Shown piece by piece: positions 31,039 to 58,663 of a stretch of DNA of 64,000 bases. Source of the stretch: Candidatus Ozemobacteraceae bacterium (lineage in GTDB: Bacteria > Muiribacteriota > Ozemobacteria > Ozemobacterales > Ozemobacteraceae); the NCBI GenBank assembly GCA_035373905.1, contig DAOSOK010000006.1:17102-81101 (forward strand). Reading direction: 5' to 3'. Below the pieces are notes generated by a model. That model worked only from the letters and a program-made list of their open reading frames with translations, was not told the origin of the DNA and made no database searches. Each line of letters begins with the position of its first letter. Position 1 is the first letter of the stretch. The position numbers and the translations under genes are program-made.

Positions 31039-31174
31039 GCTCTTCTCCTGGTTGCAATCGGTTCCGGAACCTGCGCCGGCCCGGTTTCGGGATATTCAGA
31101 ACGTCACAGCGCCGGCTCGCCGTTCAGGATATACCTTCACGGGGTTTCGTACAACTCCCGGCTTCGAATCGTCG

Positions 31175-33030: not shown

Positions 33031-33039
33031 GCAGCCTCC

Positions 33040-34053: not shown

Positions 34054-34059
34054 TTCATA

Positions 34060-34844
34060 TCATCCCAGCGTCAAGGTGCGCTTTTCGGCCTTGACGGCTT
34101 TTCTGACCCCTTCGTAGCGGTCCTGGCCGCCGTTGATCGCGACGATCTCGGGATGGGCCTCGAGAAGCCGGAGCATCTCGTAGAGGGAGGGAAGTTCGGT
34201 CGCAGGGGGGATAAGCGCCAGAAGAGCCTTCAGAAATTCGTAGTCCTCCGGACGGTCCAGCGTGACCCTGAAACGGGAGGCATCCCTGCCGAACGTAACG
34301 TTTCCGAATTTGAAATGATCGCGGTTTTCGCGGATGAACAGGGTCACGTGCTCCCGGTGCGACGGCAGGGTCGCCTCTTCGGCGACGCGCTTCAGGAGTT
34401 GCGTCGACAGGGCCTCGACGTCCAGTCCGTGCGGGAAGGTCGGCGGATGCAGGTTCGAAACGTAATCGAACGCACCGGTTTCATGCATCGCGATCACGTC
34501 GTCGACGACGCCCGGATCGATCAACGGACAGTCGGCGGTGATGCGCACCACCCGCCGGCAGGGCCATACGGTGACACATTTCGCAAAGCGTTCCAGGACA
34601 TCCATGGCCGAGCCTCGGAAACAGGGCACCCCGGCAGTTTTGCACCAGGATTCCACCGCATCGTCCTCAGGCTGCGTCGTCGTCGCGACGACGACCCGGG
34701 CAATGCGGGAAACGGCGCGGGTACGCCTGACGACGTGGCCGAGAACCGTCATTCCCTGCAGATCGAGCAGGATTTTCCCGGGCAGTCGCGACGAGCCCAT
34801 TCTCGCCTGGATGACCGCCTGCGTTTCGACCCGATCGTTGCCGC

Positions 34845-34848
<4 letters not shown>
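34060..34848 (-). CDS. pseF: Pseudaminic acid cytidylyltransferase (SpsF/PseF family)
   Basis: AVIQARMGSSRLPGK N-terminal nucleotide-binding motif of SpsF/PseF cytidylyltransferases. Stop overlaps pseC start. Confidence 0.8.
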
Positions 34849-38051
<3,203 letters not shown>

Positions 38052-38061
38052 GGTTCCCGTC

Positions 38062-39084
38062 TCAGCGCTTGACCGGGCAGTTCTGCTGGCAGCTGCCCAT
38101 GTCGATGACGCTGTTGTCGCCGATGTTGATCCGCTGGGACAGCCCCGTCAGCTCGACCGAGTCACCCACCAGCGAGTTCTCGAGCATGACGTTCCGAAGC
38201 ACCGAGTTCGCGTTGATGACGGAGTCTTTTATTATAGAATCCTCTATTTTACATCCGCCGGCGATCGAAACGTGAGGCCCGATCACCGAGTGATGCACCT
38301 GCGCCGTCGGGTCGATCGCGACCGGCGGAATGATGACGCAGCCCTCGACGCAGTAATGACTCCGGGTCGAGTTTTCCAGCAGATACCGGTTCGTCGCAAG
38401 CAGGGTTTCGGGCTTGCCGCAGTCGAGCCACTCATCGATCTCGGGCGCGCCGAGCTTCATGCCGTCCGCAATCATCAGCTTGAAGACCTCGGGAAGATAG
38501 TATTCACCCTTCACCGTCAGCCTGCGCTCGATCGCCGTGCGCAGGTATTTCATCAGGGCCATCCCGTCCTTCAGGTAATACAAGCCGACCTGGGCAAGCC
38601 TGCTGACGGGGGTGTCGGGCTTTTCGACCATGTCGACGATCACGCCGTCCTTCATGACGTTGACACCGAACCGTTTGTAATCCTCGACCTCTTTCGAGTA
38701 GATGAGGCCGTCGAGGCCGTCGCAGAGGCGCGGAATGCGCGTGAGGTCCGTCACGAACAGGGTGTCGTTGAATACCACGAGGACTTCGTCGCCGGCCTTG
38801 ATGCGAGGCTCGGCGAGCCAGACGGCATGCGCCGGCCCCAGCCGCTCGTTCTGGACGATGAACGACACGTTCACTTTCGGATAATTCTTTCGCACGAACT
38901 CCTCGATGATGTCGCCGTTCTCGTCGGTGATGAAGATGACCTCGTCGACCTTGATCCGGCCGAGATTCGCCATCACGTGTTCGAGCACGGTCTTTCCGGC
39001 CACGCGGACCATCGATTTCGGCTTGGTGTGAGTATGCGGCCGAAGCCTCGTTCCCTTCCCGGCAACCGGCAGAATGACTTTCAT
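38062..39084 (-). CDS. Sugar-1-phosphate nucleotidyltransferase with C-terminal left-handed beta-helix (hexapeptide) domain
   Basis: Start [26 protein letters not shown] (G-x-G-T-R-L nucleotidyltransferase motif), set by recounting. Its ATG overlaps the ugd stop (ATGA). C-terminal hexapeptide repeats. The 549-aa ORF-track extension is Arg-rich read-through into ugd and is rejected. Confidence 0.8.
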   Translation of the reverse strand: MKVILPVAGKGTRLRPHTHTKPKSMVRVAGKTVLEHVMANLGRIKVDEVIFITDENGDIIEEFVRKNYPKVNVSFIVQNERLGPAHAVWLAEPRIKAGDEVLVVFNDTLFVTDLTRIPRLCDGLDGLIYSKEVEDYKRFGVNVMKDGVIVDMVEKPDTPVSRLAQVGLYYLKDGMALMKYLRTAIERRLTVKGEYYLPEVFKLMIADGMKLGAPEIDEWLDCGKPETLLATNRYLLENSTRSHYCVEGCVIIPPVAIDPTAQVHHSVIGPHVSIAGGCKIEDSIIKDSVINANSVLRNVMLENSLVGDSVELTGLSQRINIGDNSVIDMGSCQQNCPVKR

Positions 39085-45391: not shown

Positions 45392-45545
45392 ATGCGTCCA
45401 TATATTGCACCACATATCATGAATGTTCTTTCCGGAATGCGGTTTTCCGTACTTGCCAACGAAAACCGTTTCTGATAAACGGATAGAGACGGACGGCGTC
45501 GCCGTCCGGTTCCAACATCTCATCGCATGCATTTCGGGAGGGAAT

Positions 45546-46178
45546 ATGAAGAAATCGTTGTCGCTGGCCCTGGTGGCCATCATGGTTCTTGGCTTCTGCG
45601 TCGCCGCCACGGCCGCCGATGATCTGAAGGGCCGCATGGAAGAACTGCGCGCGATTCGCGCCCAGATCTGGTCGCTCGTTTCCAAGCCGATGCCCACGGC
45701 CGAAGATCGCGCCCAGCTCGAATCCCTCAAGCAGGAATACGAGGCGAAACGCTGGTCCGCCGCCGCTCCCGTCGCCGCTCAGAAAGAGCCCTCGCCCGCC
45801 GTCGAAGGCGACAAGGCTCCCGCCTGCGCGACCTGCCCCTCCGCCGGCATGCCCTGCCGGCCGGCCGGTGATGAGACGAAATGCGTCTGCTCGTGCGGCT
45901 GCCCCTGCTGCAAGGACGGCGTTTGCTCTGCCGACAAGCCCTGCTGCGAAACCTGCTGCTGCAAGGCCGGCTCGCCCTGCGCCAGGATGGAAATGCGCGG
46001 TTCCTGCAAGGAATGCCCCAAGGCCGAAATGAAGAAGTGCGAGAAATGCAGGAATTCCTGCAAAAAGCACGGCCGGAAGCACGGGAAGAAGCATGGGAAG
46101 AAGCACGGCTGCAAGAAGGGCGAAACCAGGAAGAGCGAATGCGCCGGTTCCGCCTGCACCCCCGACGCGGGCAAGTAA
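45546..46178 (+). CDS. Secreted Cys-rich protein with C-terminal HGKKHG repeats (putative metal-binding)
   Basis: Signal peptide MKKSLSLALVAIMVLGFCVAATA. About 27 Cys in CxC/CC/CxxC arrays (CVCSCGCPCCKDGVCSADKPCCETCCCKAG). Then HGRKHGKKHGKKHGCKKG. Confidence 0.6.
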   Translation: MKKSLSLALVAIMVLGFCVAATAADDLKGRMEELRAIRAQIWSLVSKPMPTAEDRAQLESLKQEYEAKRWSAAAPVAAQKEPSPAVEGDKAPACATCPSAGMPCRPAGDETKCVCSCGCPCCKDGVCSADKPCCETCCCKAGSPCARMEMRGSCKECPKAEMKKCEKCRNSCKKHGRKHGKKHGKKHGCKKGETRKSECAGSACTPDAGK

Positions 46179-46201
46179 TCAGCGTTTTCAAGCCTGAACG
46201 C

Positions 46202-46232
46202 AAACCGCGGGGCCGTCGGCCCCGCGGTTTGT
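46202..46232. terminator. Bidirectional rho-independent terminator between convergent genes
   Basis: caaaccgcggggccg-t-cggccccgcggtttg, followed by TTTGTT. Confidence 0.55.
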
Positions 46233-46244
46233 TACATTCACCCG

Positions 46245-46583
46245 CTATTCGACCTGGTCGAAATGCGCGTTCACCTTCGCAGCCATGATGAAATCGTTCT
46301 CGTGCAGTCCCTTGATCTTCGCCGTCCTGAAGACGACGATGCAGAATCCCCAGCCGATGGTGATGACGGGATGGTGGCCTTCTCTCTCGGCTAGCTCGCC
46401 CGTTTTCACGGCGAACGACATGGCTTTGATGAAGTTTTTGAAGGGAAATCGCCGGTGAATGGAGAGGCCGTCTTCCGACAGCTGCCACCCCGGCGTCTGT
46501 GCAAGAAATGCCTGCGCGGCGTCGCGCGACAGAGGCTCAACCCCGCCCTGGCAGGGAACGCAGTTTTTTTCCGTCAGTCCCAT
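46245..46583 (-). CDS. phhB: Pterin-4a-carbinolamine dehydratase
   Basis: PCD signature EREGHHPVITIGWG. 112 aa. Confidence 0.85.
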   Translation of the reverse strand: MGLTEKNCVPCQGGVEPLSRDAAQAFLAQTPGWQLSEDGLSIHRRFPFKNFIKAMSFAVKTGELAEREGHHPVITIGWGFCIVVFRTAKIKGLHENDFIMAAKVNAHFDQVE

Positions 46584-46611
46584 TTCCGACTCCTTCTCCC
46601 GATCCCTGGTG

Positions 46612-47676
46612 TTAGACGCTCATCATGCGATCCAGAGCCTCGCGGGCAGGCTCGCGGATCGTATCGGCAACCCGCACGACATTCAGTTCCCCCGGCCGGC
46701 TCAGCACCCATGCCATGTCCTGAAGGCTGTTCCGAAACATGTTCGGACACCGCGAGAGGGCCAGCGGCTTCACCGTGAGGTGCGGGTACTGTTTCGCCAG
46801 GCGCTCCACGAGACTGATTTCGGTTCCGATCACGAATGAATCGCCGGGCGCGGCGGCCGCAACCCGTTTGATGATCCATGAGGTCGATCCGGCGCCGTCC
46901 GACGTTTCAACGACGTCGCGTTCGCACTCGAGGTGCACCAGCACCTTCGAGCCGGGCAGATCGCGCCGGGCCGCGGCAACCTGTTCCGCCGTGAAGCGGG
47001 TGTGAACGTGGCAGTGGCCATTCCAAAGAAGGACTCTCGCCTTTTTCAGGCCGTCTGCCGTGTTGTCGCCCAGCGGCTGATAGGGCTTCCAGAGAAGGAT
47101 TTCTTCGTCTTTCATCCCCGCCGATCGCGCGACGTTGCCGCCGAGATTCCGGTCGGGCAGGAAGAAGAGCCTCGGACGGCGTTTCAACGCCCATTCGACG
47201 ATGCGCGCGGCGTTCGAGGAAGTACAGACCGTGCCTCCATGACGCCCGCAAAACGCCTTGATCTCGGCGCTGGAGTTCACGTAGGTAACCGGAATCACCT
47301 CGTTTTCCACGTCCATCACGCCCGACAGCTGTTGCCAGGCATCCTCCACTTCGCCGATGGAGGCCATATCGGCCATGGGACAACCGGCATCGGCATCGGG
47401 CAGAATGACCGTCTGCGAGGGAGCCGTAAGAATGTCGGCGGTCTCGGCCATGAAATGGACGCCGGCAAAGAGGATCAGCCGGGCCGTCGTTGCGGCCGCG
47501 GCGCGAGCCAGTTCGAGCGAGTCTCCACGATGGTCGGAAAGTTCGACCACGCCGTCGCTCTGATAATGATGTCCGAGAATGAGCAGATCGGAACCGAGCT
47601 CCCGCCTGCACGACCGAATGCGTTCGGCAGCCTCGGCATCCGACATCACTCGGAAATCTTCTGGAAGTTCCTGCAT
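46612..47676 (-). CDS. nadA: Quinolinate synthase
   Basis: NadA three-fold repeat with Fe-S Cys ligands (HCHVHTRF..., LILGHHYQ, VHFMAETAD). Start at the internal MQELPEDF preferred. Confidence 0.85.
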   Translation of the reverse strand: MQELPEDFRVMSDAEAAERIRSCRRELGSDLLILGHHYQSDGVVELSDHRGDSLELARAAAATTARLILFAGVHFMAETADILTAPSQTVILPDADAGCPMADMASIGEVEDAWQQLSGVMDVENEVIPVTYVNSSAEIKAFCGRHGGTVCTSSNAARIVEWALKRRPRLFFLPDRNLGGNVARSAGMKDEEILLWKPYQPLGDNTADGLKKARVLLWNGHCHVHTRFTAEQVAAARRDLPGSKVLVHLECERDVVETSDGAGSTSWIIKRVAAAAPGDSFVIGTEISLVERLAKQYPHLTVKPLALSRCPNMFRNSLQDMAWVLSRPGELNVVRVADTIREPAREALDRMMSV

Positions 47677-47748
47677 CTCGCACCGCCGCATGATGATTCC
47701 ATAAGAGCCTCTCACCATACCCCAAGGATCCCGGGCGGTCAATGAGCT

Positions 47749-49410
47749 CTATTCCCGATGATACCAGTCCTGACACCGGCGGCAAGGCGATCCCTCGGAC
47801 AGGCTCAGTTCGAGATGCTCGCGCCGGAAGCGGCGCCATGCGTCCCCGCTCCAAGCCTCTTCAAAGGATTTCATGGATCCGAGATTTCCCCATCCATGGG
47901 CCCCCTCGATATCGAACGGACAACGTGCGATCGATCCATCCTGGAGAATATATATCCCGAGAAGGGCATGGAGGCATGGTCTCCGGTTCAGGGGCTCGTA
48001 GCGTACCATTCCGGCATACTCTACGCACCCCAGGAACTCGGCGGCGCCGAGAATCTGGTACCACTGCACTTTCTGCGGCGGCGCATCCGTCGGCCACACG
48101 AAGAAGTTTTTTCGGAAAACCGGGGTACAGACCCGTTTCCAGTAACTGATGAACGGCCCGGCCGCCGCCTCGTTCTCCCGGTGTTTCAGAAAGGAAACGC
48201 CGATTTCCGGTCTGCGGCCCGGCGCTTCGGCCTTTCTGGCCGCCTCGGCCGCGAGGAATCGTTCGACCGCTTCCCACGAGCAGCCAGGTCGCATGGCGTG
48301 GAACTGTTCAGCGTCGAGCGCATCGACGCTGATTCTGACCAGATCGACGTGTTCCCAGGGAAACGCGTCGTGCAGACCGGCGTTCAGCGACGTGTGGATG
48401 GTGACATGTCGGTCCTTCACGCGTTCGACCATGGCACCCAGGCCGGGATTTGCGAGCGGCTCGCCCATACCGGAAAACACCCACCTCAGCCCCTCGACAT
48501 GGTGTATTTTACTCGTTATCGTTTCGAATGTTTCCGGCGACATGAGTCCATGCGGCCGACGAAGATGCGGCTGGGGACAATGCAGACAGGAACCGGCGCA
48601 GACGCTCGACGGCTCCACCCAGGCGGTGAGCGGTCCCTGATCGAGATAGACCTCTTCCCAACCGGATGTCGAAATCCAGTCGAGATACTCGAAGCCGGGG
48701 GTCGCAAAAGCGTCGCCGCCGCGCGCGTCGAGGGTCCGTGAAACCCGTTCGCAGGTGAGGCGGAGATCGGCCGGGAGTCGCGGTCTGTTCCGAGGGGCGT
48801 GATACTCGCCGATCCTGAAGGGATACAGCGGCTCCCTCAATGCCCACGCCAGGCCGCCCCGCGTCGCCATGATGTCGGGATGGCTCGCCTGGAGGCCCGC
48901 CACGAGGGTCCCCTCGAGAATCGCCCAGCCGCCCCCCGAGATTCGGTCTTCGGCAAACGTGACGTCGAAGCCTTCCCTCGCATGCAGGCGCAGACTCTCG
49001 ACGATGCCGCGGCGGTCCGCCAGCAGATTCTCGAGAGGGATGAGAACAAGCCTGTCCCAGCGGCGTTTCGCCGCCGTTGTCGCAATGGGCGTCCCCGCCC
49101 ATGTATCCGTTCCGATGTCGCTTTCGAGCTGCCAGCGCTCCTGCGAGGCCGACCACGGCTTCCCCTTCAGACCGGACGAGTCATATCGCTCGACGCCGGC
49201 GCGAAGAGCGACAGCCTGCTCAGCGAGCGGCTCCATCTCGACCCCGGACGGGGCCAGCAGCACGATCTCGTCGATTCCCGGGATGTTCCCGAGGCGCCCC
49301 GTCAAGATTTCAAGCGGGGTCCCGCGCGAACCGATCCGCCGATCCAGCCGCCAGACCGGCCGGTATCGCGGTTTCAGATCATCGACGAACAGGATCAGGC
49401 CGGTCCGCAC
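47749..49410 (-). CDS. Radical SAM / SPASM-domain enzyme fused to an N-terminal nucleotidyltransferase(cytidylyltransferase)-like domain
   Basis: Central CxxxCxxC (CAGSCLHCPQ) with a downstream GMGEPL glycine-rich SAM motif. C-terminal Cys cluster (CPFDIEGAHGWGN...CRRCQDWYHRE) consistent with a SPASM/twitch auxiliary Fe-S domain. N-terminal about 230 aa resemble SpsF/cytidylyltransferase-type alpha/beta domains. Last gene of the flagellar filament operon side. Confidence 0.75.
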   Translation of the reverse strand: MRTGLILFVDDLKPRYRPVWRLDRRIGSRGTPLEILTGRLGNIPGIDEIVLLAPSGVEMEPLAEQAVALRAGVERYDSSGLKGKPWSASQERWQLESDIGTDTWAGTPIATTAAKRRWDRLVLIPLENLLADRRGIVESLRLHAREGFDVTFAEDRISGGGWAILEGTLVAGLQASHPDIMATRGGLAWALREPLYPFRIGEYHAPRNRPRLPADLRLTCERVSRTLDARGGDAFATPGFEYLDWISTSGWEEVYLDQGPLTAWVEPSSVCAGSCLHCPQPHLRRPHGLMSPETFETITSKIHHVEGLRWVFSGMGEPLANPGLGAMVERVKDRHVTIHTSLNAGLHDAFPWEHVDLVRISVDALDAEQFHAMRPGCSWEAVERFLAAEAARKAEAPGRRPEIGVSFLKHRENEAAAGPFISYWKRVCTPVFRKNFFVWPTDAPPQKVQWYQILGAAEFLGCVEYAGMVRYEPLNRRPCLHALLGIYILQDGSIARCPFDIEGAHGWGNLGSMKSFEEAWSGDAWRRFRREHLELSLSEGSPCRRCQDWYHRE

Positions 49411-49544
49411 ATTCGCTTCACTTTCTATATTGAATATTATTCATGAGCGCCGGGACAAGCCCGGGAAAGCCGGTTTTTTCCAACACCGACTTTCCCGTCA
49501 TGCATCGTTCCATTGCGTGCTCGCGTAGATCGCCCAAGGCTTCC

Positions 49545-49733
49545 TCAGGCATACAGGTCGAGGACGCCCCCCTTGCCTTCCGCTTCGGCAGCGGAAACCT
49601 TGTTCGACGCGGCCGCACCGATCAGTTTCTTGACCATGTCGATCGACTGTTCCTGCTGTTCCTCCAGCATTTTCATGACCTCGGCAAGCTGGGACCCGCC
49701 ACCTACTCCACCCACACTGGACATACGCCCCAC
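49545..49733 (-). CDS. YjfB-like small putative motility protein
   Basis: 62 aa; ...SQLAEVMKMLEEQQEQSIDMVKKLIGAA...GGVLDLYA resembles the YjfB_motility family. Immediately downstream of fliS. Confidence 0.45.
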   Translation of the reverse strand: MGRMSSVGGVGGGSQLAEVMKMLEEQQEQSIDMVKKLIGAAASNKVSAAEAEGKGGVLDLYA

Positions 49734-49749
49734 CCCCTTTCGCCGGGCT

Positions 49750-50181
49750 TCAGACGGCTACGTTCAGCCGCGGTCTGGGCGGCTGTTGCGGCGTGGTCGG
49801 ATTCTTGGCGTTGAGTTTCATCGCCTCCGCCCACGTGTTCCGAAGGTCTTCGATCAGAGGCTTCACCTGCCTCATGGGCTCCGGATTCTTCTTGAGATTG
49901 CTGTCCGTCAGTTTTTCGAGAAAAAACAGGTACAACCGTTCCAGGTTGGTCGCGATCTCTCCGCCCTTTTCCTTGTCGAGCGAGGTCATCAACTCGGTGA
50001 TGATGGCCTGCACCCGCAGCAGGGAGTTGCTGATCTGCTCGTTGTTTTTCGCCAGGAATGCGTCTTCCGCCTGGGCAATGAAGCGAAGGGCCCCGTCGTA
50101 CAGCATCAGGATCAGCGCTTCGGGCGAAGCGGTGTCGATCTGTGTCTTGCGATAGGAGTCCTGTTGGACGTTCTGCATCAT
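49750..50181 (-). CDS. fliS: Flagellin-specific chaperone FliS
   Basis: TASPEALILMLYDGALRFIAQAE...EKGGEIATNLERLYLFF is the canonical FliS four-helix signature. ATG overlaps the maf-2 stop (ATGA). Confidence 0.85.
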   Translation of the reverse strand: MMQNVQQDSYRKTQIDTASPEALILMLYDGALRFIAQAEDAFLAKNNEQISNSLLRVQAIITELMTSLDKEKGGEIATNLERLYLFFLEKLTDSNLKKNPEPMRQVKPLIEDLRNTWAEAMKLNAKNPTTPQQPPRPRLNVAV

Positions 50182-52124
50182 CAGGGCGTTACCGGCCTTT
50201 CCTGGACTGCATCCCGAGCGGGCGCCGCAAGCGAATGGATCGCCGCTTCCATCAGGGGATACTGGTACTCGTGAAACTTCGTCACCGACTCGAGGAAAAG
50301 CCCGATCTCCTCGATCCAGGCGAGCGTTTTCGCCGTTTCATCGGCTCTCAACCGCTTGAGTTCGAGCGCATGCCGGTTGACGAACCTGGTCTGGTGAACG
50401 GCATACCAGCCATACACCGTCATGTCATCGAGAAGATGGTCGTGCAGTTCGAGCAGCTCGCGGTATTGGACGAGCGCGGGGCCGGTCAGGGCGGACGGCT
50501 GCGCATCGCGGGAAGCCGCTCCGGCAAGTTTCCTGCAGAGGGCGGCAGCTCGGCGGACGTCGTCCTGCTGCTGCCGCAGAACCTTCATCAGCTCTTCGAG
50601 GCGGGCGATCATGCCGGGAACATCGGCCCGCACCGGCTTTTCGACGACCTCCCGCATGATCCCGGCAATCGGGGCGCCCTTGTCCGCATACGTTTTCACG
50701 ACGTCCGCCATCGTCATGCAGGTCACGTGCCGGGTCACCACGCCGCCCTCGGTGGCGTTGACGACTTTCGCGGCGGTCTGCCGGAACTGGTCCTCGAACC
50801 AGGCGCGATACATGTGCATATTCTGGTCCGTGTACAGGACCGAACCGTCGGACATCGCGATCCGGTGTGTACCGCGGGTCTGGATATACTCGACCGTCTC
50901 GTGTTCGAGCGACGTCAGAGGATGCACCCGGTCGTAAAAGACGTCGTCGGAATACGAACCTCGGGCGTAGAGTTTGCCGTCCTGGAATGACAGGTCGAGC
51001 CCGACGAAGACGATGGGGTCGCAGCCGCAGCTTCGCGCGAGATCGAACGCGGTCGTCGCGATCGAGCCCCAGCAGACGACCTTGCCGGTCGGCTCGCGAA
51101 ACGGCTCGATCAGCGTCTGCAGGCCGCCGCCGAACGTCATGGCCATCTTCGGTCCCCGGAACTGCTCGATGATGTCGGGATGCGTCATCGGCTCGACGGC
51201 GAGAACGACGCCGGTTTCGTTCTCGACCCCGACGAAGTCGAGCGAATTCAGGTAACTCGGGTCTGCGGCCAATACAATATGAGGACGTATATTTCGTGCA
51301 ACGAGTTGCCGGAACGACGTGTCAACGGCGATCACGAGGAACCGGTCGCGGATGTCGGCGAGCAGAGCGGCGTTCTTCTCGAGCGACGGGCCGGCGGCGA
51401 CGATCACGGCGGGCACCCCGGCGAACCGCCCGAACATCCGCCCTACGCCCGGCAGCGTCAGGGCTGCACGGAGATTGGCGAACGAGTTCGAATGAAACTC
51501 GTTCCCCGTGTGCATCAGCGTGACCAGGTTGCCCTTGGACCGGTTCGCGAGATACAGCACCTTTTCCTTGAGACGTTCGAAATACCCGTGAAAACGCGAC
51601 AGCGACGGCGGATGTTCGACGACGGCCAGCGCATCGAGGTTGACCCAGTCGAGCCCCATCGCCCACCGATCGCCGAACTCGTCCGGCGTCATCCCGACGC
51701 ACCACTCGATTCGCGGATCGTTCAATGCGGGCCGCATGTCGCGGCTTGCCAGGGCTCGCAGAAAGACCTGCGGATCGGGTTCGACGACGTACACCTGGCG
51801 CTCGAACCCCGGCCGGGCGAGCTTCTCCAGGACGACGTCGACCAGGTATCCCAGGCCGGCGCCCAGGATCATGACGTTCGTATGCTGCGGCTGAAGCACG
51901 GAATCCGCCTGGCGGGCGGCTTCCGCGAGGGGGTCGTAGCGGCTGTGATAGGAAAAGGTCTTTCCGCCGGTCGCGATGGTCAGCGTTGGAAGCCCCGTGC
52001 GGGCCGGTTCCACCCGGTAAGAGGCATCGGAGGCAGCATCGGCATGCTGTTGCGCCATCGCAACGAGATGCGGGTGGCGTACCAGCGCCTGCAGATTTGC
52101 CTTCAGGAACGGCGATTCCATCAT
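50181..52124 (-). CDS. maf: Motility-associated factor (Maf) family protein, paralog 2
   Basis: 647 aa. DUF115/MptE-like core (AVIVAAGPSLEKN...IAVDTSFRQLVARNIRPH...VFVGLDLS). Shares architecture but only low identity with paralog 1. Confidence 0.8.
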   Translation of the reverse strand: MMESPFLKANLQALVRHPHLVAMAQQHADAASDASYRVEPARTGLPTLTIATGGKTFSYHSRYDPLAEAARQADSVLQPQHTNVMILGAGLGYLVDVVLEKLARPGFERQVYVVEPDPQVFLRALASRDMRPALNDPRIEWCVGMTPDEFGDRWAMGLDWVNLDALAVVEHPPSLSRFHGYFERLKEKVLYLANRSKGNLVTLMHTGNEFHSNSFANLRAALTLPGVGRMFGRFAGVPAVIVAAGPSLEKNAALLADIRDRFLVIAVDTSFRQLVARNIRPHIVLAADPSYLNSLDFVGVENETGVVLAVEPMTHPDIIEQFRGPKMAMTFGGGLQTLIEPFREPTGKVVCWGSIATTAFDLARSCGCDPIVFVGLDLSFQDGKLYARGSYSDDVFYDRVHPLTSLEHETVEYIQTRGTHRIAMSDGSVLYTDQNMHMYRAWFEDQFRQTAAKVVNATEGGVVTRHVTCMTMADVVKTYADKGAPIAGIMREVVEKPVRADVPGMIARLEELMKVLRQQQDDVRRAAALCRKLAGAASRDAQPSALTGPALVQYRELLELHDHLLDDMTVYGWYAVHQTRFVNRHALELKRLRADETAKTLAWIEEIGLFLESVTKFHEYQYPLMEAAIHSLAAPARDAVQERPVTP

Positions 52125-52159: not shown

Positions 52160-52798
52160 CTACTCGGTCTCACCGGGCTCGCTCTTCCCGGGCATCAGAC
52201 TCTTCAGCTCGTCGAACAGTTCGCGCGCCTGGGCGGTGATCGGGGGAATCTCGTATTCGAGAATGTCCGCCAACCCCACCCAGTCGTTGTTTTCATGCGC
52301 TTTCTGCAATGCGGTCATCTGGGCCGCGAGCTGCTCCATCAACTGCGAGCGGCTCGACTCGATCGATCGTTCGCTCATCTCGGGGGCAAATCCGACGGCC
52401 AGGTTTTTCAAAATCGAGGAAAGCCACTCGAGACCGTCCAGCGTTTCGAGCTGTCGCTCCATGGCTTCCTTGATCTTTCCGATCCGGAGATCCGATGCGA
52501 CGCTCAGGGCGCGCTCGTCGATGAAATCGAAGACGTCGGGACCTTCTTCGAGCGCCATTTCCAGCAGATCGCGCGCCGTCGCGGTCAGGATTTCCACCGT
52601 CTGGTACTCGACGATCTTGTGCGCCGAGAGAACATCCGCCTGATCGGCGGACAACCGCGTATCGTCGGCAACCACTTCCATGACCGCCGCCCCGCTGTCT
52701 TTCAGCTCGGCCGATATCAGTTCGACCAGGTCCGCTAACGTCACCTCCGGCGTGATGCCGTCGATCGTGATCGGTTCACCGTTCAGCAGAATATTCAC
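52160..52798 (-). CDS. Hypothetical protein embedded in the flagellar operon (beta-grasp-like N-terminus + helical C-terminus)
   Basis: 212 aa. MNILLNGEPITIDGITPEVTLADLVE resembles ThiS/MoaD-like beta-grasp starts. Acidic helical C-terminal half. Sits between fliD and maf-2. Function unknown. Confidence 0.5.
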   Translation of the reverse strand: MNILLNGEPITIDGITPEVTLADLVELISAELKDSGAAVMEVVADDTRLSADQADVLSAHKIVEYQTVEILTATARDLLEMALEEGPDVFDFIDERALSVASDLRIGKIKEAMERQLETLDGLEWLSSILKNLAVGFAPEMSERSIESSRSQLMEQLAAQMTALQKAHENNDWVGLADILEYEIPPITAQARELFDELKSLMPGKSEPGETE

Positions 52799-52877: not shown

Positions 52878-55853
52878 TCAGCGGCCGCTCAGCTGTGAAA
52901 GCTGGCTGGCGAACGCATCCGCCTGGCTCTGATATTTCGACATCGCGGTTTCGAGAGCCGCAAACTGTTTCAGCAACGTTTCCTCGCGATCCGCGAGTTT
53001 TTCCTCCTGGCGATTGATCTGCTTGTTGAGGAGGGTGATCTGGCGATCCATCGAACTGTCGGCGTTCGTGACGCCCGAGCGGCCGACGCGAAGCGTGAGG
53101 ATACCGTCGCTCTTGGTGAACTCGTTCAGCATGTTTTTGAGCCGGCGGGCGATCCCCATGTTCGATTCGCTGGACGAATCGTTCGCGAACAGCGCCGCAA
53201 GCTTTTCGGGATTGTTGGTCAGCACGTCGTTCAGCTTGTCCTCATCCGTGATGGACAGCTTTCCGACCTGGGTCGTCTGGTAATCCGAACCGACCTCGCC
53301 GGTCGTGATGCCGATATCGGAAAGGCTGTCGAACAGCTTGTCTGCGCCGCCGACGATGCCCGCCATGACGACGCGCATCCTGCTCCGTATCGACGAGAGC
53401 GTCGAATCGCCGGCAAGAAGTCCGATCTTGAATTTTTCCTCGTAGGTGGCGAGTTCTTCCGTAGAGAGGGCCTTCTTCTCGACTTCCGTCAGGGCCTGGA
53501 GCGATGAATCCTTCTCTTCCTTGAGTTTGGTGTATATCAACTCCATCACTTCGTTGTAACTGGCAAGGAAATCGTCGATGGCCTTGCGGGAATTCTTCGT
53601 GTCGGCCGCGACGGTGATCGTCTCGCCGCTTCCGACCGTCGTGCCTTTGAGGGTGAAGGTCAGACCGCTGATGACGTCAGACACGTCATTCGACTGCCTC
53701 ACGATATCCGACCCGCCGTACAGCCCCTCGACGGTGAAGATCGCATTTTTCCCGACGTTCTGGGGGGCTGTGATCATGCCGAGAGCCGACAGGAAGTTGC
53801 TGGTGTCGGTCGAAGCCCCGATGGCGATAGAGGTATTTCCCGTCTGCGTCGAGGTCAGCATGAACTTGCCGGTGTGCGCGTCGAACTCCGCCTTCACGCC
53901 GGCTTTCTTGTTGTTGTTGATCGTCGACATCAGCGATTCCAGGGTCACGGAGCCGGGGCTCGAGATGTTGAACGTCGTGCCGTTGATGGTGAATGTTCCG
54001 GCCGTAATGGCCTGTGCAAACCCCGCCTTGTCGAGCGTCACGGACGTCTGAAGCGAAGAAAGCGGACGACTGCTTTCGAGGGCCGGGCCGGTATCGGATC
54101 CGGTTGCCGTCATTCCTGACGGTATTCCAAGGGCATCGGCGAGTCCGCCGCTCATGTCTTCGAGCTTGAGCCCGGCGGAACTTCCTTTCTGCTCCGACGT
54201 GATCCGGAAAGTCCGGGTGGTTTCATCGAACCAGACGCTTTCGACGCCCGAAATCGCGTCCAGCCGCTCCATGAAGGAGGAAAGCGAATCCGTCGAGTTC
54301 CAGTCGACCAGGCTCGCCACGCCGTTCACCGTCAGCCGCACCTGACCAGCCGTGCCGGGTGAGGCAAGGCCGAGTGTTTCGAGGTTCTGGGAAAGGGCGT
54401 CGGCAGCCGAGAAACCGAGGCTCGAACCGCTCGCGAGCGTTGCCGCCGTCGCCTGGGAACCGCTGATCAGGCCGGCAACGGAAAGGAAGTTGCTCGTGTC
54501 GTTCGCGGCGCCGAGACCGATCGGCTGAGAACTCCCGTCTTTGCGCGTCAGTCTGATCGTGTCTTTGTCTGGATCGTATGTCGCGGCAATGCCGGTCAGG
54601 GAGGTAATCCGCGAAAGCACGTTCTGGAGCGTGTCACTCTGGTTGTTGATCGAGATCTGCACCCCGTCGAGCGTGAACGTCCCGGAGGAAATGATCGAGG
54701 AGAACGTCTCCTGGTAGAGTTTCAACCCGGCGTCCGTCGTCGAGGCGACCGTCGTGTTTCCGAACAGCATGGCCGTGAGATTCCCGCCCGAAGTGCCGAC
54801 GGTGAACTTCGTCACATCCGTGGTGTCTGTGTTCGCCAATATCAGCTTCCCCGTCCCCTGATCGTATTTGAACTCGAGCCGGCGGTCCGCCGGGTTACCG
54901 GTGACCGCGCCGCCCCGAACCAGATCGGGGGAAGCATCGATCCGGCGATTCATCGCGCTCACGAACTCGGATACCGTCGAATTCTCATCGAGACCCGCCG
55001 AAGCCAGGTCGAGCGTCACCGCCGGCCCGCCCTGCCGCTGGATGGTCATGCCGGAGAAGGGGTCGACGCCGAGGTCGCGCAGCGTCGTCTGAAGCCCGGA
55101 CCTGATGGCCATCAGGCTCGAATCCTTCGCCGGTTGGTCCTTCGTGAGGGTGAAATTTCCCGTGGCGGAAAACATCTTTCCGACGACATTGCCCGTGGTA
55201 TCCGCCAGGGCCAGCGTCTTGTTGCTGTCGAGGAGGGTAACGCGGACCCGGTTCGTCTTCAGGTCATACCCGGCGACGGCTTTCCCGTTCATGTTGCCAT
55301 TGCCGGATATCGCCGTATTGATACTGTTGATCAGGTTCTGGACGGAGGCATTCGGATCGACCGTGATGTTCTCCGTCGCAGAACCGATCGTCAGTTTCAA
55401 TTCCCCGGGGGTAATGCCGAGATTGCTCAGCGCCGTGCTCGGTCCGCCAAGCGATTTCGAACTTCGGAGATTCTCCCCCATCTCGATCGCTCCCCCAAGC
55501 CTGCCGGCGGAAGAGACGGTCGTGGCGGAAGCCAGTTGTTTCACGTTGATCGTGTAATTGCCGACTTTCGCCGACGTGTTCGCAACGGCGCTCAGCAGCT
55601 TGTCGCTCGAGGAGGTAACGGTCTTGGAGTTGAAGGTCTTCGAGAAGATCAGGTCGGTGGCCTTGTTCTGAAGGCCGTACAACTTGAGATTGATGTCCTG
55701 CAGCATCGACTTCTGGAAGCCAAGCGTGTTGCGCTTCTGTTCGAGCTGATTCAGCGGCGCCCGCTCGGCTTCGATGATCTTGGTGATCAGGCTCTGCGTG
55801 TCGAGTCCGCTGGACAGGCCACCGACCCAGTTTCTCGAAATATTGCTAACCAT
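52878..55853 (-). CDS. fliD: Flagellar filament cap protein FliD (unusually long, 991 aa)
   Basis: N-terminal GGLSSGLDTQSLITKIIEAERAPLNQLEQKRNTL and C-terminal QEEKLADREETLLKQFAALETAMSKYQSQADAFASQLSQL are canonical FliD terminal helices. Long Ser/Thr/Gly-rich central region. Confidence 0.85.
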   Translation of the reverse strand: MVSNISRNWVGGLSSGLDTQSLITKIIEAERAPLNQLEQKRNTLGFQKSMLQDINLKLYGLQNKATDLIFSKTFNSKTVTSSSDKLLSAVANTSAKVGNYTINVKQLASATTVSSAGRLGGAIEMGENLRSSKSLGGPSTALSNLGITPGELKLTIGSATENITVDPNASVQNLINSINTAISGNGNMNGKAVAGYDLKTNRVRVTLLDSNKTLALADTTGNVVGKMFSATGNFTLTKDQPAKDSSLMAIRSGLQTTLRDLGVDPFSGMTIQRQGGPAVTLDLASAGLDENSTVSEFVSAMNRRIDASPDLVRGGAVTGNPADRRLEFKYDQGTGKLILANTDTTDVTKFTVGTSGGNLTAMLFGNTTVASTTDAGLKLYQETFSSIISSGTFTLDGVQISINNQSDTLQNVLSRITSLTGIAATYDPDKDTIRLTRKDGSSQPIGLGAANDTSNFLSVAGLISGSQATAATLASGSSLGFSAADALSQNLETLGLASPGTAGQVRLTVNGVASLVDWNSTDSLSSFMERLDAISGVESVWFDETTRTFRITSEQKGSSAGLKLEDMSGGLADALGIPSGMTATGSDTGPALESSRPLSSLQTSVTLDKAGFAQAITAGTFTINGTTFNISSPGSVTLESLMSTINNNKKAGVKAEFDAHTGKFMLTSTQTGNTSIAIGASTDTSNFLSALGMITAPQNVGKNAIFTVEGLYGGSDIVRQSNDVSDVISGLTFTLKGTTVGSGETITVAADTKNSRKAIDDFLASYNEVMELIYTKLKEEKDSSLQALTEVEKKALSTEELATYEEKFKIGLLAGDSTLSSIRSRMRVVMAGIVGGADKLFDSLSDIGITTGEVGSDYQTTQVGKLSITDEDKLNDVLTNNPEKLAALFANDSSSESNMGIARRLKNMLNEFTKSDGILTLRVGRSGVTNADSSMDRQITLLNKQINRQEEKLADREETLLKQFAALETAMSKYQSQADAFASQLSQLSGR

Positions 55854-55915: not shown

Positions 55916-56293
55916 TCAGGCTTTCTTGTCGAAGATGATTCCCAGGTATTCCTGCATTTTCGCGACAAGGTCGAGAGCTTCCTGGGAGGGAATCTCCCGG
56001 ATCACCTTGTCATTGGCCACGTCTATGACCGAAACCATCATTTCCTTCGTCGCGTCATGGATCCTGAACTTCAGAGAACGATCGAAAATCATGGATGTCT
56101 TGTTCAACTTATCGACGGCATCCTTGATTTTCTCCATCTGTTTGGCAGGATCCTCGGCTTCGGCCTGCGCCTTCACCGCTTCCTGCTTCATGGGAGAGTC
56201 GGCGCCGGCGCCGGGGATGGGAAGGGGCACCTCGGGTTCTTTGGTCACTTCTGGCACTTGAATGGTTACAGGTTTCACATTTCCGATTTCCAT
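55916..56293 (-). CDS. flaG: Flagellar protein FlaG
   Basis: C-terminal FRIHDATKEMMVSVIDVANDKVIREIPSQEALDLVAKMQEYLGIIFDKKA matches the FlaG family signature. 125 aa. Confidence 0.8.
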   Translation of the reverse strand: MEIGNVKPVTIQVPEVTKEPEVPLPIPGAGADSPMKQEAVKAQAEAEDPAKQMEKIKDAVDKLNKTSMIFDRSLKFRIHDATKEMMVSVIDVANDKVIREIPSQEALDLVAKMQEYLGIIFDKKA

Positions 56294-56440: not shown

Positions 56441-58663
56441 CTATTTCAGGAGCTGGAGCACTCCCTGGGGCACCAGGTTCGCCTGCGCGAGCATCGCGGT
56501 CCCCGACTGGGCGACGATCTGGTCGCGCGTGAACTCGACCATCTCAAGCGCCATGTCGGCATCTCTGATCCGCGACTCGGCGGCGCTCAGGTTGGTCTTC
56601 ATCGTGTTGATGCTGTTGATGGAGTATTCCAGCCTGTTCTGGAAGGCACCGAGTTTCGAACGCTCCGACGACACCTTGTCGATCGCCTTGTTCAGCTTCG
56701 AAAGGCTCTTCTGGGCGCCTTCGATGCTCGTCAGGTCGAGATTGTCGACGCCGAGCGCACTGGCCGACATCTCCGAGATCGCGATCTTCATGTTCTGACC
56801 TTCGTCACCGCCAAGCTGGAAACTTGGGGTGTTGTCGACCACGTGCATCCGGAAGTTCTTGTCGCCCGACCCGACGGCCGTCGATTGGCGAGAGAATCCG
56901 AACGTCTTGTCGAGGCCGATAGCGGTGACTCCAGCTGACAGCCCGAAGTTTATCCGAACCTGGCTGATGGTGGAACCGCCGGATGTGTGGTTTTCTTTTC
57001 CGACCCGGAGAGACGTGAACGCCAGACCTCCGTTAATAGCATCGACCCTGATGGCGACACTTTGCGTCTTCAGCGTCTGGTTCACCGACTGCTGCCACAG
57101 CTCGAAGCTGACCATGTCGGCGTTCGTCATGCGGAATTCCGCAGCAATGCTGAGGACTGCCGTATTCACTCCGTCAGAGACGCTGATGAAGTAGGTGAAC
57201 GCGCCTGAGAAATCCGCATACTTGCTGAAGCCGAACGCAACCTTGGTCGTGTCCTTGGACCCCTGCGCGAATCCGCTGTAGGAACCGTTCAGGATACCGA
57301 TCGTGTTCGTCGTGGCATTTGCGATGTTGAACGAGGAGTCCGCACCCGCCGCGACAGGCTCATACATGATACGAATCTGCCCGTCGATCACCATCGCCGA
57401 GGTGCCGCTCATTGCAGTAGCACCAGCTGTCCACTGGGCATTGATGCTTCGGGCAATTCCTTCCATGGTCCATCTGCCAGACCTGATGGTAATCGTCTTC
57501 GACACGCCACCGGCAGATATCGTGAACGATTCGCCACCGGAGCCGATGAGAAGTCCGTTTGCAAGGCCGCCAAGGCCTGCGACCTGAGCCGCCTGCGACG
57601 TGAACTGGACGTCGATTCCCTCCAGCAGGCCGGCCGCCCTGTCTTCAGAGGTCCGAACCTGCATGACATTGCCGAACGCATCTTTCGAGGAGAGTTCGAC
57701 GAGATTGTTCTTCGCGTCGCGAATGGTGGTGAGGCCGAGAGCGGTCATCAGGGCCTGATCGCCGGAGAAGGCGACGTTTCCAATATCGCCGATCGAGCCC
57801 GAGACAAGCTGGAGATATCCGCCGATGCCGGCAATGCCCGTCTGACTGCTGTTTACCACACCTACTTTCGAGTTGGCGATTCCAAGGCCCGAGGTACCGA
57901 CAAGAGCGTTCTGGATTGCGGCTGAAAGCCTATCGAGCGACATCTGCCCGTCGACGGAGATGGACGTCGTCTTGGAATTGCCGCTCAATGACAGCGTCTG
58001 GGCAGAAGCAAGAACGAAGACGCCGTTGGTGTCGTAGAACTGGGCAATGCTCTGGAGCTGCGTCGAGCCCTTCGCAAGAGCGCCTGTCCCGTCGTTCAGC
58101 GTCATGATCTGCGAACGCTGCATCTGGCTGATGCCGGCCTGGACGAGGGTGATGCTGACGTCGTAGTCGCCCCCTCCCTTCCCGACGCCGGTCACCATGC
58201 CGTTGACGGAGTGCGAGCTGGCGCTGATCAACGCCGTCTGACTGCCGTCGAGAAGTTTTTTCGTATTGAACTCGGTGTTGTTCGCGATGCGGTTGATGTC
58301 GTCGCGGAGCTGGTTCACTTCCTTCTGGATTTCCAGGCGGTCATTGCTGGTGAGCGTGTCGTTGCTCGACTGGATGGCCAGTTCGCGCATGCGCTGCAGG
58401 ATGCTCTGCAGTTCGCTCATCGCGCCTTCCGCCGACTGGATCATCGAGACGCCGTCCTGGGCGTTCAGCACCGCCCGCGTCAGGCCTCTGACCTGGCGGC
58501 GGAGCTTTTCGCTGATGGCCAGCCCCGCGGCATCGTCAGCGGCCTTGTTGATCCGCAGGCCGGAACTCAGCTTCTCGATCGATTTTTCGAGTCGGCTCGA
58601 GGTCGTGGCCAGGGTCGAGTGCGCTTTCAGGGATAGGATGTTCTGGTTGATGGTAAGTGACAT
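56441..58663 (-). CDS. flaA: Flagellin (large, 740 aa) copy A
   Basis: Canonical N-terminal D0/D1 (MSLTINQNILSLKAHSTLATTSSRLEKSIEKLSSGLRINKAADDAAGLAISEKLRRQVRGL) and C-terminal (LSAAESRIRDADMALEMVEFTRDQIVAQSGTAMLAQANLVPQGVLQLLK). GGAGGA RBS. About 450-aa variable core. Confidence 0.95.
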   Translation of the reverse strand: MSLTINQNILSLKAHSTLATTSSRLEKSIEKLSSGLRINKAADDAAGLAISEKLRRQVRGLTRAVLNAQDGVSMIQSAEGAMSELQSILQRMRELAIQSSNDTLTSNDRLEIQKEVNQLRDDINRIANNTEFNTKKLLDGSQTALISASSHSVNGMVTGVGKGGGDYDVSITLVQAGISQMQRSQIMTLNDGTGALAKGSTQLQSIAQFYDTNGVFVLASAQTLSLSGNSKTTSISVDGQMSLDRLSAAIQNALVGTSGLGIANSKVGVVNSSQTGIAGIGGYLQLVSGSIGDIGNVAFSGDQALMTALGLTTIRDAKNNLVELSSKDAFGNVMQVRTSEDRAAGLLEGIDVQFTSQAAQVAGLGGLANGLLIGSGGESFTISAGGVSKTITIRSGRWTMEGIARSINAQWTAGATAMSGTSAMVIDGQIRIMYEPVAAGADSSFNIANATTNTIGILNGSYSGFAQGSKDTTKVAFGFSKYADFSGAFTYFISVSDGVNTAVLSIAAEFRMTNADMVSFELWQQSVNQTLKTQSVAIRVDAINGGLAFTSLRVGKENHTSGGSTISQVRINFGLSAGVTAIGLDKTFGFSRQSTAVGSGDKNFRMHVVDNTPSFQLGGDEGQNMKIAISEMSASALGVDNLDLTSIEGAQKSLSKLNKAIDKVSSERSKLGAFQNRLEYSINSINTMKTNLSAAESRIRDADMALEMVEFTRDQIVAQSGTAMLAQANLVPQGVLQLLK

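Follow-up and report, generated by a model that had tools for sequence, protein, structure and literature searches.

We analysed a stretch of 64,000 nucleotides (the window) from the genome of a Candidatus Ozemobacteraceae bacterium (assembly GCA_035373905.1, contig DAOSOK010000006.1, positions 17,102 to 81,101 of the forward strand), which carries on its minus strand, at 47749–49410, a gene for a 553-residue radical S-adenosylmethionine (radical-SAM) enzyme. The protein joins a degenerate PseF/SpsF-like domain to a radical-SAM core and a twitch-type auxiliary-cluster domain, and its gene follows directly upon a group of flagellar filament genes that includes a Maf-type putative flagellin glycosyltransferase. 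An earlier note, made from the letters of the window, had described the gene as a fusion of a radical-SAM/SPASM enzyme with a nucleotidyltransferase-like domain, placed at the tail of a flagellin-modification operon. Here we describe the architecture of the protein, its relatives and its genomic position, and we weigh the proposal that it tailors a nucleotide-activated sugar for flagellin glycosylation.

Domain architecture of the 553-residue protein

The open reading frame (ORF), which has a GTG start codon, is on the evidence of its conservation a genuine gene. A search of 5.8 billion proteins returned 32 homologous clusters with identities of 37–100%, mostly aligned over the full or nearly the full length, and 70 columns are invariant across 18 aligned family sequences. 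Its radical-SAM core (residues 266–387; 48250–48615, minus strand) scores 44 bits on Pfam PF04055 against a cut-off of 29.5. The CxxxCxxC motif to which the earlier note had pointed, CAGSCLHC, lies at residues 271–278 (nucleotides 48577–48600), and C271, C275 and C278 are invariant in the 18 sequences, as are S313, G314, G316, E317 and P318 of a GGE-type SAM motif, SGMGEP, at residues 313–318. By cluster motif, profile score and GGE-type motif the protein is placed in the Radical SAM superfamily, and we judge the core to be competent from domain scores above the Pfam thresholds, the invariant cysteines of the motif, SGMGEP and four further cysteines near the C-terminus.

Those four cysteines belong to an auxiliary [4Fe-4S] domain at residues 479–547 (47770–47976, minus strand). 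The Pfam SPASM model matches residues 485–547 (26.5 bits, cut-off 21.5), and TIGR04085 (SPASM) scores below its threshold (13.9 against 27). The only invariant cysteines in the C-terminal part of the 18 sequences are C479, C497, C543 and C546, spaced C479-x17-C497-x45-C543-x2-C546; C377 is near-invariant and lies outside the domain. In the hidden Markov model (HMM) alignment, the family profile sets this region against the ‘LPC’ cysteine and the CxxC (‘CKNC’) pair of BtrN, which we take to be ligands of the BtrN auxiliary cluster, and also against anSME. Four invariant cysteines that align with BtrN argue for a twitch-type domain with a single auxiliary cluster, which narrows the earlier description of a ‘SPASM/twitch-like’ cluster. 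A full SPASM domain with two clusters and seven or eight conserved cysteines was ruled out on the same count.

Between the core and the twitch domain lies a family-specific segment (residues 430–478; nucleotides about 47977–48123) of the form FFxWP...VQWYQILG...RRPC, which combines 11 invariant residues with the lowest model confidence in the protein (pLDDT 49–76). It could be a substrate lid.

The N-terminal domain, about residues 1–258 (48637–49410, minus strand), was elusive in sequence searches. In HMM searches Radical_SAM and SPASM exceeded their cut-offs, and the N-terminal domain matched no Pfam or NCBIfam model even at E≤10, CTP_transf_3 (PF02348) included. A profile search of the PDB gave no sequence match for this domain, and when its profile was run exhaustively with HMMER against 1.84 billion representatives, it recovered nine clusters, all from its own family, with no bridge outward. 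Structure prediction was more informative. AlphaFold2 supplied with the family alignment returned a confident two-domain model (pLDDT 88.3, pTM 0.89) with the radical-SAM core packed against the N-terminal domain, and the N-terminal domain modelled alone reached a pLDDT of 89.5. Foldseek comparison supports an SpsF/PseF-like fold (E 5.9e-11, TM 0.75/0.81). Among solved structures 6oew is of the SpsF/PseF type, and it is matched at E 1.6e-42 by the PseF candidate in the window itself (34060–34848, minus strand). Alignment of the N-terminal family profile with PseF and 6oew by hhalign gave a probability of 73% and an E of 3.1e-5 over 216 colinear columns. The predicted structure and the profile alignment thus support assignment of the domain to the nucleotide-diphospho-sugar transferase fold, closest to the SpsF/PseF-type cytidylyltransferases, much as the earlier note had suggested from the translation. 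A role of the MoaA/MobA type in cofactor synthesis was ranked low, the SpsF-type structural match being much stronger than the match to MobA.

The fold is retained, but the catalytic motifs have probably been lost. G159, R184 and the (D)LRLT motif are kept in the hhalign comparison. The cytidine triphosphate (CTP) loop of PseF, ARxGSxRLPGK, corresponds to xxDGLxxLYR, with R16 aligned to D, S or N and K25 to a variable residue; the Mg-binding aspartate of the GDCP (DCP) motif aligns to N, H or S; and the GxDxE position reads GANW, with D143 aligned to G or N. The domain also carries a family-specific insertion of 24 residues relative to PseF (residues 86–109; 49084–49155, minus strand), seen as a gap in the hhalign comparison and containing invariant R92, W93, D98 and G100. 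Transferase activity is unlikely without the canonical CTP-loop and Mg-binding residues, and the domain is more likely a ligand-binding pseudo-enzyme than an active cytidylyltransferase, the alignment behind this judgement being of moderate confidence. It is nevertheless strongly conserved, with 32 of 262 columns invariant and many of these arginine (R39, R92, R156, R184, R207, R217 and R222, with R17 near-invariant in the first loop), and is therefore functional rather than decaying.

Relatives and nearest known systems

Carbohydrate-acting radical-SAM enzymes score best against the 553-residue protein by both sequence and structure. The best sequence match to a solved structure is BtrN (PDB 4m7s/4m7t; E 6.5e-15, in two segments), followed by anSME on the twitch region and then by DesII at E 2e-4. 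BtrN is a 2-deoxy-scyllo-inosamine dehydrogenase, which acts on a small carbohydrate-like aminocyclitol. Each protein has a single four-cysteine auxiliary cluster, and the alignment takes in the CxxxCxxC motif as well as the region of the auxiliary cluster at the C-terminus. BtrN differs in being a single-domain protein of about 250 residues, without a nucleotide-binding domain or the segment of some 50 residues (about 430–478) described above, and identity is only about 20%. BlsE, DesII and viperin act on nucleoside- or nucleotide-linked substrates; BlsE is a cytosylglucuronate decarboxylase with a cytosyl-sugar substrate, and the substrate of DesII is a sugar bound to deoxythymidine diphosphate (dTDP). 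None of the three has a fused nucleotidyltransferase-like domain, and their matches are at fold level only (15–16% identity).

All NCBIfam matches of the protein fall well under their cut-offs. Among curated models TIGR04321 (‘spiro-SPASM’) alone spans the radical-SAM and SPASM part in full; it scores 53.4 bits against a cut-off of 250 and pairs residues 268–550 with profile positions 238–506 of 510. Since this alignment begins at position 238, leaving about 237 N-terminal positions unaligned, the spiro-SPASM family must also possess an N-terminal region of about 237 residues. The layout is accordingly the same in both, an N-terminal domain of about 240 residues followed by radical-SAM and SPASM parts, at lengths of 553 and 510. 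They differ in that the N-terminal domain of the present protein does not align to the model, and in lineage, the model being named for spirochaetes. This comparison was made against the NCBIfam model rather than against spirochaete members themselves. Word-indexed searches yielded an identical set of 33 proteins whether the 553-residue protein or the family profile was the query, none of them a spiro-SPASM member, and a search with the protein of locus L034, described below, found no named spiro-SPASM protein. Judged by score, the protein lies outside TIGR04321 and, by profile or motifs, outside CTP_transf_3. With the SpsF/PseF cytidine monophosphate (CMP)-sugar synthetases of CTP_transf_3, such as 6oew and the PseF of the window, it has in common a colinear profile alignment; it differs from them in lacking HMM-level similarity, in its altered motifs and 24-residue insertion, and in its fusion to a radical-SAM enzyme.

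The nearest out-of-family match in a scan of 185,579 species-representative genomes is a 505-residue protein at L034, with Pfam matches to CTP_transf_3 (residues 37–135, above threshold), Radical_SAM and SPASM. Its TIGR04321 score is 122 bits (profile positions 69–505); it aligns with the Riflebacteria family over the full length (hhalign 99.8%, E 3.6e-28), and has an N-terminal domain that resembles PseF/6oew (probability 75%) and keeps ADNP and GxNxE motifs. By eye, the N-terminal domains of this protein and of the Riflebacteria family share a motif after the first strand, D-[GA]-x-L ... P-[IV]-x4-5-LEIL. L034 bridges TIGR04321 and the Riflebacteria family, and the combination of nucleotidyltransferase-like, radical-SAM and SPASM parts is therefore a shared architecture and not an unprecedented one.

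Relatives of this kind are found among genes for glycan synthesis in all eight contexts inspected. The L034 operon runs GT2 glycosyltransferase, epimerase, DegT aminotransferase and then the fusion gene. In the P0044 and P0045 clusters the order is epimerase, GT2, WbqC, fusion, second radical-SAM/SPASM gene, epimerase and PIG-L, near a Bac_transf gene; at P0043 the fusion is again followed by a second radical-SAM/SPASM gene and an epimerase, with methyltransferase, glycosyltransferase and NTP_transferase genes as the other neighbours and no GT2, WbqC, PIG-L or Bac_transf gene. Stand-alone relatives adjoin glycosyltransferases, methyltransferases and Wzm/Wzt, and in P0060 (775 residues) a radical-SAM/SPASM unit of the same clade is fused to glycosyltransferase group 1 (GT1) domains. 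A stand-alone radical-SAM/SPASM protein of 341 residues lies within a flagellin glycosylation island of Clostridioides (L047 7929–8954, OX246690.1), and another occurs in Paraclostridium dentum (L050); the clostridial order is fliC, GT2/TPR, GT4/TPR, GT4, TPR/GT2, radical-SAM/SPASM, GT4, epimerase and RmlC. The clostridial enzyme seems to supply a radical step, so far uncharacterised, to a flagellin glycan pathway. Of the independent evidence for a sugar substrate, we regard these eight contexts as the strongest.

In the polysaccharide clusters at L058 (8001–10491), L059 (8001–10549) and P0043, the fusion gene is always followed by a stand-alone radical-SAM/SPASM gene of about 320 codons and then by an epimerase gene, which looks like a sugar pathway with two radical enzymes.

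Genomic position in Riflebacteria

Named homologues from both protein and family-profile searches all belong to Candidatus Ozemobacteraceae or Riflebacteria, and the genome scan yielded 27 family loci (L007–L033), which were compared with the proteins of the window and are all of Riflebacteria type, a few with odd bin labels. By these searches the family is confined to a single phylum, the Riflebacteria. Two loci labelled as Candidatus Methylomirabilis sp. (L023) and Erysipelotrichia bacterium (L026) contain a complete flagellar and radical-SAM locus of Riflebacteria type at 41–44% identity; their bins are probably mislabelled or contaminated.

Twenty-six loci have enough upstream sequence to be assessed. 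In 25 of these, at identities down to 36%, the radical-SAM gene comes directly after Maf, FliS and a small ORF, and the whole order flagellin, FlaG, FliD, hypothetical, Maf, FliS and small ORF is present wherever the contig extends far enough. Insertions separate the small ORF from the radical-SAM gene at L033 and L030; the junction at L030 (7133–8001) contains tandem repeats of roughly 100 nt, together with a masked stretch and a small GIY-YIG nuclease-like ORF, and looks like a mobile insertion. Downstream genes vary from locus to locus while the adjacency to Maf and FliS stays. The gene nadA follows in 10 of the 26 loci, all of them in an Ozemobacteraceae-like sub-clade, and a gene for pterin-4a-carbinolamine dehydratase (PCD) in 21, being absent from five. 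The earlier note had raised the alternative that the gene is conserved beside nadA independently of flagella; in these loci it is the flagellar side that is constant. The pairing with PCD (DCoH/PhhB-like) occurs in most Riflebacteria even without nadA and also at L019, and we noticed no aromatic amino-acid hydroxylase near it.

In the window the same order is found on the minus strand, and the earlier note's reading of it stands apart from the labels ‘flaA’ and ‘yjfB-like’. Three tandem genes of about 690–743 codons (56441–58663, 59223–61454 and 61908–63989) encode flagellins of ordinary type with Flagellin_N and Flagellin_C domains, as identified from Pfam marks on their orthologues; the start of the third is that of the longest ORF (GTG), which may be truncated. 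They are followed by FlaG (55916–56293) and a FliD of 991 residues (52878–55853), whose orthologues carry FlaG and FliD_N/C marks respectively, and by a conserved hypothetical protein of about 200 residues (52160–52798). Orthologues of the last have TP0873_N and DUF8042 in precomputed Pfam annotation, the window copy having no match in local Pfam, which points to a component of the flagellar operon common with Treponema. The Maf-type protein (50181–52124), a putative flagellin nonulosonic-acid glycosyltransferase, has an MptE-like domain (PF01973, E 2.5e-37), a weak Maf_flag10_N match and a match to a PseD-like domain. FliS, the flagellar export chaperone (49750–50181; Pfam FliS E 5e-39, TIGR00208), and the small ORF (49545–49733) complete the series. 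This ORF, of about 59–62 codons with orthologues in 23 loci and a C-terminus of the form ...G.G..LDLYA, had been labelled ‘yjfB-like’. It may possibly be so, but the label is essentially unsupported, since PF14070 (YjfB_motility) matches one of 14 orthologues at E 0.03 and does not match the window copy. Beyond the radical-SAM gene come nadA (46612–47742) and PCD (46245–46583), both identified by Pfam and NCBIfam models.

The flagellins and the 991-residue FliD are far above typical size, and their large central regions could hold many glycosylation sites.

Genes within the flagellar operon are nearly contiguous. The gap from the small ORF to the radical-SAM gene is 134 nt in the window, 50–350 nt in most other loci and 14 nt in L012, and the spacing of radical-SAM, nadA and PCD genes in the window is a few to about 30 nt. 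We inspected the junction in the window (49410–49545, minus strand) and its equivalents in L009, L017, L020–L027 and L031. A stem-loop with a 13-bp stem and no T-tract (U-tract in the RNA) lies at 49462–49497 on the minus strand (−25.6 kcal/mol, z −2.9), at a position where several related loci have clear intrinsic terminators, and a strong hairpin stands at the start of every gap that was folded or read by eye, among them those of the six related loci examined most closely, the sequences being non-homologous between clades. In L009, L021 and L025 the hairpin is followed by a T-tract and forms a canonical intrinsic terminator; L017, L023 and L027 were also judged terminator-like by eye. In Rifleibacterium-type loci a −10-like hexamer (TATAGT, TACAAT, TAACAT, TAGTAT or TAGAAT) is found at a constant distance before the start codon. 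When the window was scanned for consensus promoters and terminators, the interval from the small ORF to the radical-SAM gene came out empty, because the hairpin here lacks a T-tract; it emerged only on folding and on comparison of loci. No Rfam match to a riboswitch or other known RNA was found at E≤1 in 46000–50300. The hairpins and hexamers together point to a terminator–promoter boundary at this junction.

A pseudaminic-acid-type cluster, identified by Pfam, lies about 9 kb from the radical-SAM gene (29122–39070, minus strand). In ascending coordinates it comprises a second Maf (29122–31038), a PseH-like GNAT protein (31175–31996), NeuB/PseI (31981–33030), a hypothetical protein without Pfam match (33040–34053), the PseF already mentioned, DegT/PseC (34845–36053), a PseB-type dehydratase (36050–37066), an epimerase (37059–38051) and an NTP_transferase (38062 to about 39070). 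PseG was not recognised in the cluster, in which 33040–34053 is the ORF that Pfam leaves without a match. With two Maf proteins and homologues of PseB, PseC, PseF, PseH and PseI near flagellin, FlaG, FliD and FliS genes, the window has by homology the context of a Maf/Pse locus, and in this it resembles the systems of Campylobacter, Helicobacter, Aeromonas and Magnetospirillum. It differs in that a radical-SAM gene, probably separately transcribed, adjoins the flagellar genes. We know of no described Maf/Pse flagellin glycosylation system that includes a radical-SAM enzyme. Full-text literature searches produced nothing relevant on fusions of this kind, on spiro-SPASM proteins or on a radical-SAM reaction in glycosylation of the Pse/Maf type; they gave one lead, the phase-variable and uncharacterised radical-SAM genes of a locus in Campylobacter fetus.

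UDP-glucose dehydrogenase and nucleoside diphosphate (NDP)-sugar genes are also present nearby. Elsewhere in the window, an ORF on the plus strand (45423–46178) encodes a Cys-rich predicted protein (...CATCPSAGMPC...CVCSCGCPCCKDGVCSADKPCCETCCCKAGSPC...) that ends in a basic tail, HGKKHGKKHG, and looks metal-binding.

Substrate and biological role

The architecture and folds of the protein, the loss of canonical nucleotidyltransferase motifs, restriction to one phylum, the conserved position beside the filament and Maf genes and the glycan contexts of its relatives are the observations on which an interpretation can be built. The statement we make with most assurance is that the protein probably acts on a nucleotide-activated sugar, a substrate that is best supported because the nearest solved relatives (BtrN, BlsE and DesII) are carbohydrate-acting and the out-of-family relatives lie in glycan clusters. 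More tentatively, and at somewhat less than an even chance for the whole chain, we propose a Riflebacteria-specific radical-SAM tailoring enzyme whose substrate is plausibly CMP-pseudaminic acid and whose product would feed Maf-dependent glycosylation of flagellin. A second Maf in the window, together with a full pse-type pathway, counts in its favour. The pseudo-cytidylyltransferase domain would bind the CMP (or other nucleotide) part of the activated sugar, most plausibly CMP-pseudaminic acid, one of its precursors or one of its derivatives, supplied by the pse cluster, and would present the sugar at the mouth of the radical-SAM barrel. There the 5′-deoxyadenosyl radical would abstract a hydrogen from a sugar C–H (carbinol) position and the auxiliary cluster would accept an electron, so that a keto sugar would result by oxidation of the BtrN type; epimerisation and deoxygenation are the alternatives. 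The adjacent Maf enzyme or enzymes could then use the modified sugar to decorate the very large flagellins. Of the earlier note's suggestion of radical chemistry on a nucleotide-activated nonulosonic acid or on the flagellin glycan itself, the nucleotide-sugar part is retained; the nature of the ligand and of the radical reaction, like the delivery of the product to flagellin, is our inference.

Several points weigh against this proposal. The hairpin, the −10-like element and the tight packing with nadA and PCD indicate that the gene is probably part of a separate transcription unit, radical-SAM–(nadA)–PCD, situated just after the filament/Maf operon, so that the earlier placement at the tail of a flagellin-modification operon is probably mistaken, although read-through may occur. 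With a separate unit likely, the link to flagellin depends on conserved position and on the PseF-like N-terminal domain rather than on operon membership; as regards the gene itself that link is positional only, and the genes packed most closely with it, nadA and that for a pterin dehydratase, are not sugar genes. All carriers belong to one phylum, and the synteny may for that reason be inherited and not selected. Two loci are not beside flagellar genes at all: at L019, where the upstream genes are divergent, radical-SAM and PCD stand alone, and at L005 the gene follows a histidine kinase and a sigma-54 regulator. Unrelated genes, LptF/G among them, intervene between the radical-SAM locus and the pse cluster, a canonical PseF is already present in the genome, and no Pse pathway known to us requires a radical step. 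The argument from motif loss depends on a profile alignment of 73% probability. Lastly, the L034-type and Riflebacteria N-terminal domains compared alone do not align significantly (E 0.12), which leaves descent from a single fused ancestor unproven.

Some of these points would be expected if the enzyme tailored a nucleotide sugar for a non-flagellar glycan, such as lipopolysaccharide, capsule or S-layer, and owed its place after the filament operon to inherited synteny. The hairpin and promoter-like element that set the gene apart, the proximity of LptF/G, UDP-glucose dehydrogenase and NDP-sugar genes, the occurrence of relatives in clusters of O-antigen or polysaccharide type with Bac_transf and Wzm/Wzt, and the non-flagellar settings of L005 and L019 all fit such a role. 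We nevertheless think it unlikely, given that the gene keeps its Maf–FliS adjacency in 25 of 26 loci despite changing downstream genes and that its N-terminal domain is nearest to the PseF/SpsF subtype, which is here represented in a pse cluster ending in a second Maf. A bifunctional enzyme, in which the N-terminal domain is an active if unusual cytidylyltransferase making a CMP-sugar that the radical-SAM domain modifies (or the reverse order), would account for the PseF-like fold and for the invariant arginines and near-invariant R17, which could bind phosphate or carboxylate. Replacement of the PseF motifs at R16, K25, the DCP aspartate and D143, lack of any CTP_transf_3 signal even at E 10 and the canonical PseF already in the window make it very improbable.

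Two further alternatives dispense with a nucleotide sugar. An enzyme of cofactor or metabolite synthesis, working with nadA and/or PCD, for example a pterin or Mo/W-cofactor maturase with a MobA-like nucleotide-binding domain, is suggested by the tight spacing of the three genes, by PCD downstream in 21 of 26 loci and kept with the radical-SAM gene at L019 away from flagellar genes, and by the best partial NCBIfam match, to the tungsten-cofactor radical-SAM maturase TIGR04317. That match covers only the generic N-terminal core, reaches 57 bits against a cut-off of 380 and is common to every related radical-SAM protein of the glycan clusters; nadA is limited to one sub-clade and PCD is missing from five assessable loci, and we consider this role distinctly unlikely. 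Also quite improbable is a peptide or protein maturase, similar to those of ribosomally synthesised and post-translationally modified peptides (RiPPs) or modifying a flagellar protein, that acts on the upstream small protein (...LDLYA) or on flagellin. A conserved ORF of 59–62 codons with a conserved C-terminal motif does precede the gene in at least 22 loci, but its product lacks cysteine and belongs to the flagellar operon, a hairpin or terminator lies between it and the enzyme gene, and relatives of the same architecture have no such ORF and stand among sugar genes. The 553-residue protein, moreover, contains no peptide-recognition domain of the RRE type, its N-terminal domain having a nucleotidyltransferase fold instead, and it is carbohydrate-acting enzymes that score best against it.

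We return to the proposal of a tailoring enzyme for a nucleotide-activated sugar. What is new at this locus is a phylum-restricted branch of an uncharacterised architecture (nucleotidyltransferase-like, radical-SAM and twitch/SPASM), with an unusually degenerate N-terminal domain and a new conserved position. Should the link to flagellin be positional only, this would be a lineage-specific sugar-modifying radical-SAM enzyme of ordinary interest. A bolder version, which we consider doubtful, is that a radical-SAM enzyme here tailors a CMP-activated nonulosonic acid, which would be a first, with a dead PseF paralogue serving as the CMP-sugar recognition module of a BtrN-like dehydrogenase or epimerase. 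If so, the flagellin glycan of these bacteria would lie beyond the reach of the canonical Pse pathway, and spiro-SPASM and L034-type fusions would share the logic of a pseudo-nucleotidyltransferase as substrate handle in other glycan pathways. If the proposal is correct, a pseudo-enzyme domain has been reused for substrate recognition, as RRE domains are in RiPP maturases, and a first functional handle would be gained on uncharacterised proteins with nucleotidyltransferase-like, radical-SAM and SPASM parts, including spiro-SPASM and the polysaccharide-cluster relatives of uncultured bacteria. We know of no description of a radical-SAM step in flagellin glycosylation of the nonulosonic-acid or Maf type, and if one were confirmed, the reactions known on bacterial sialic-acid-like sugars would come to include radical chemistry.

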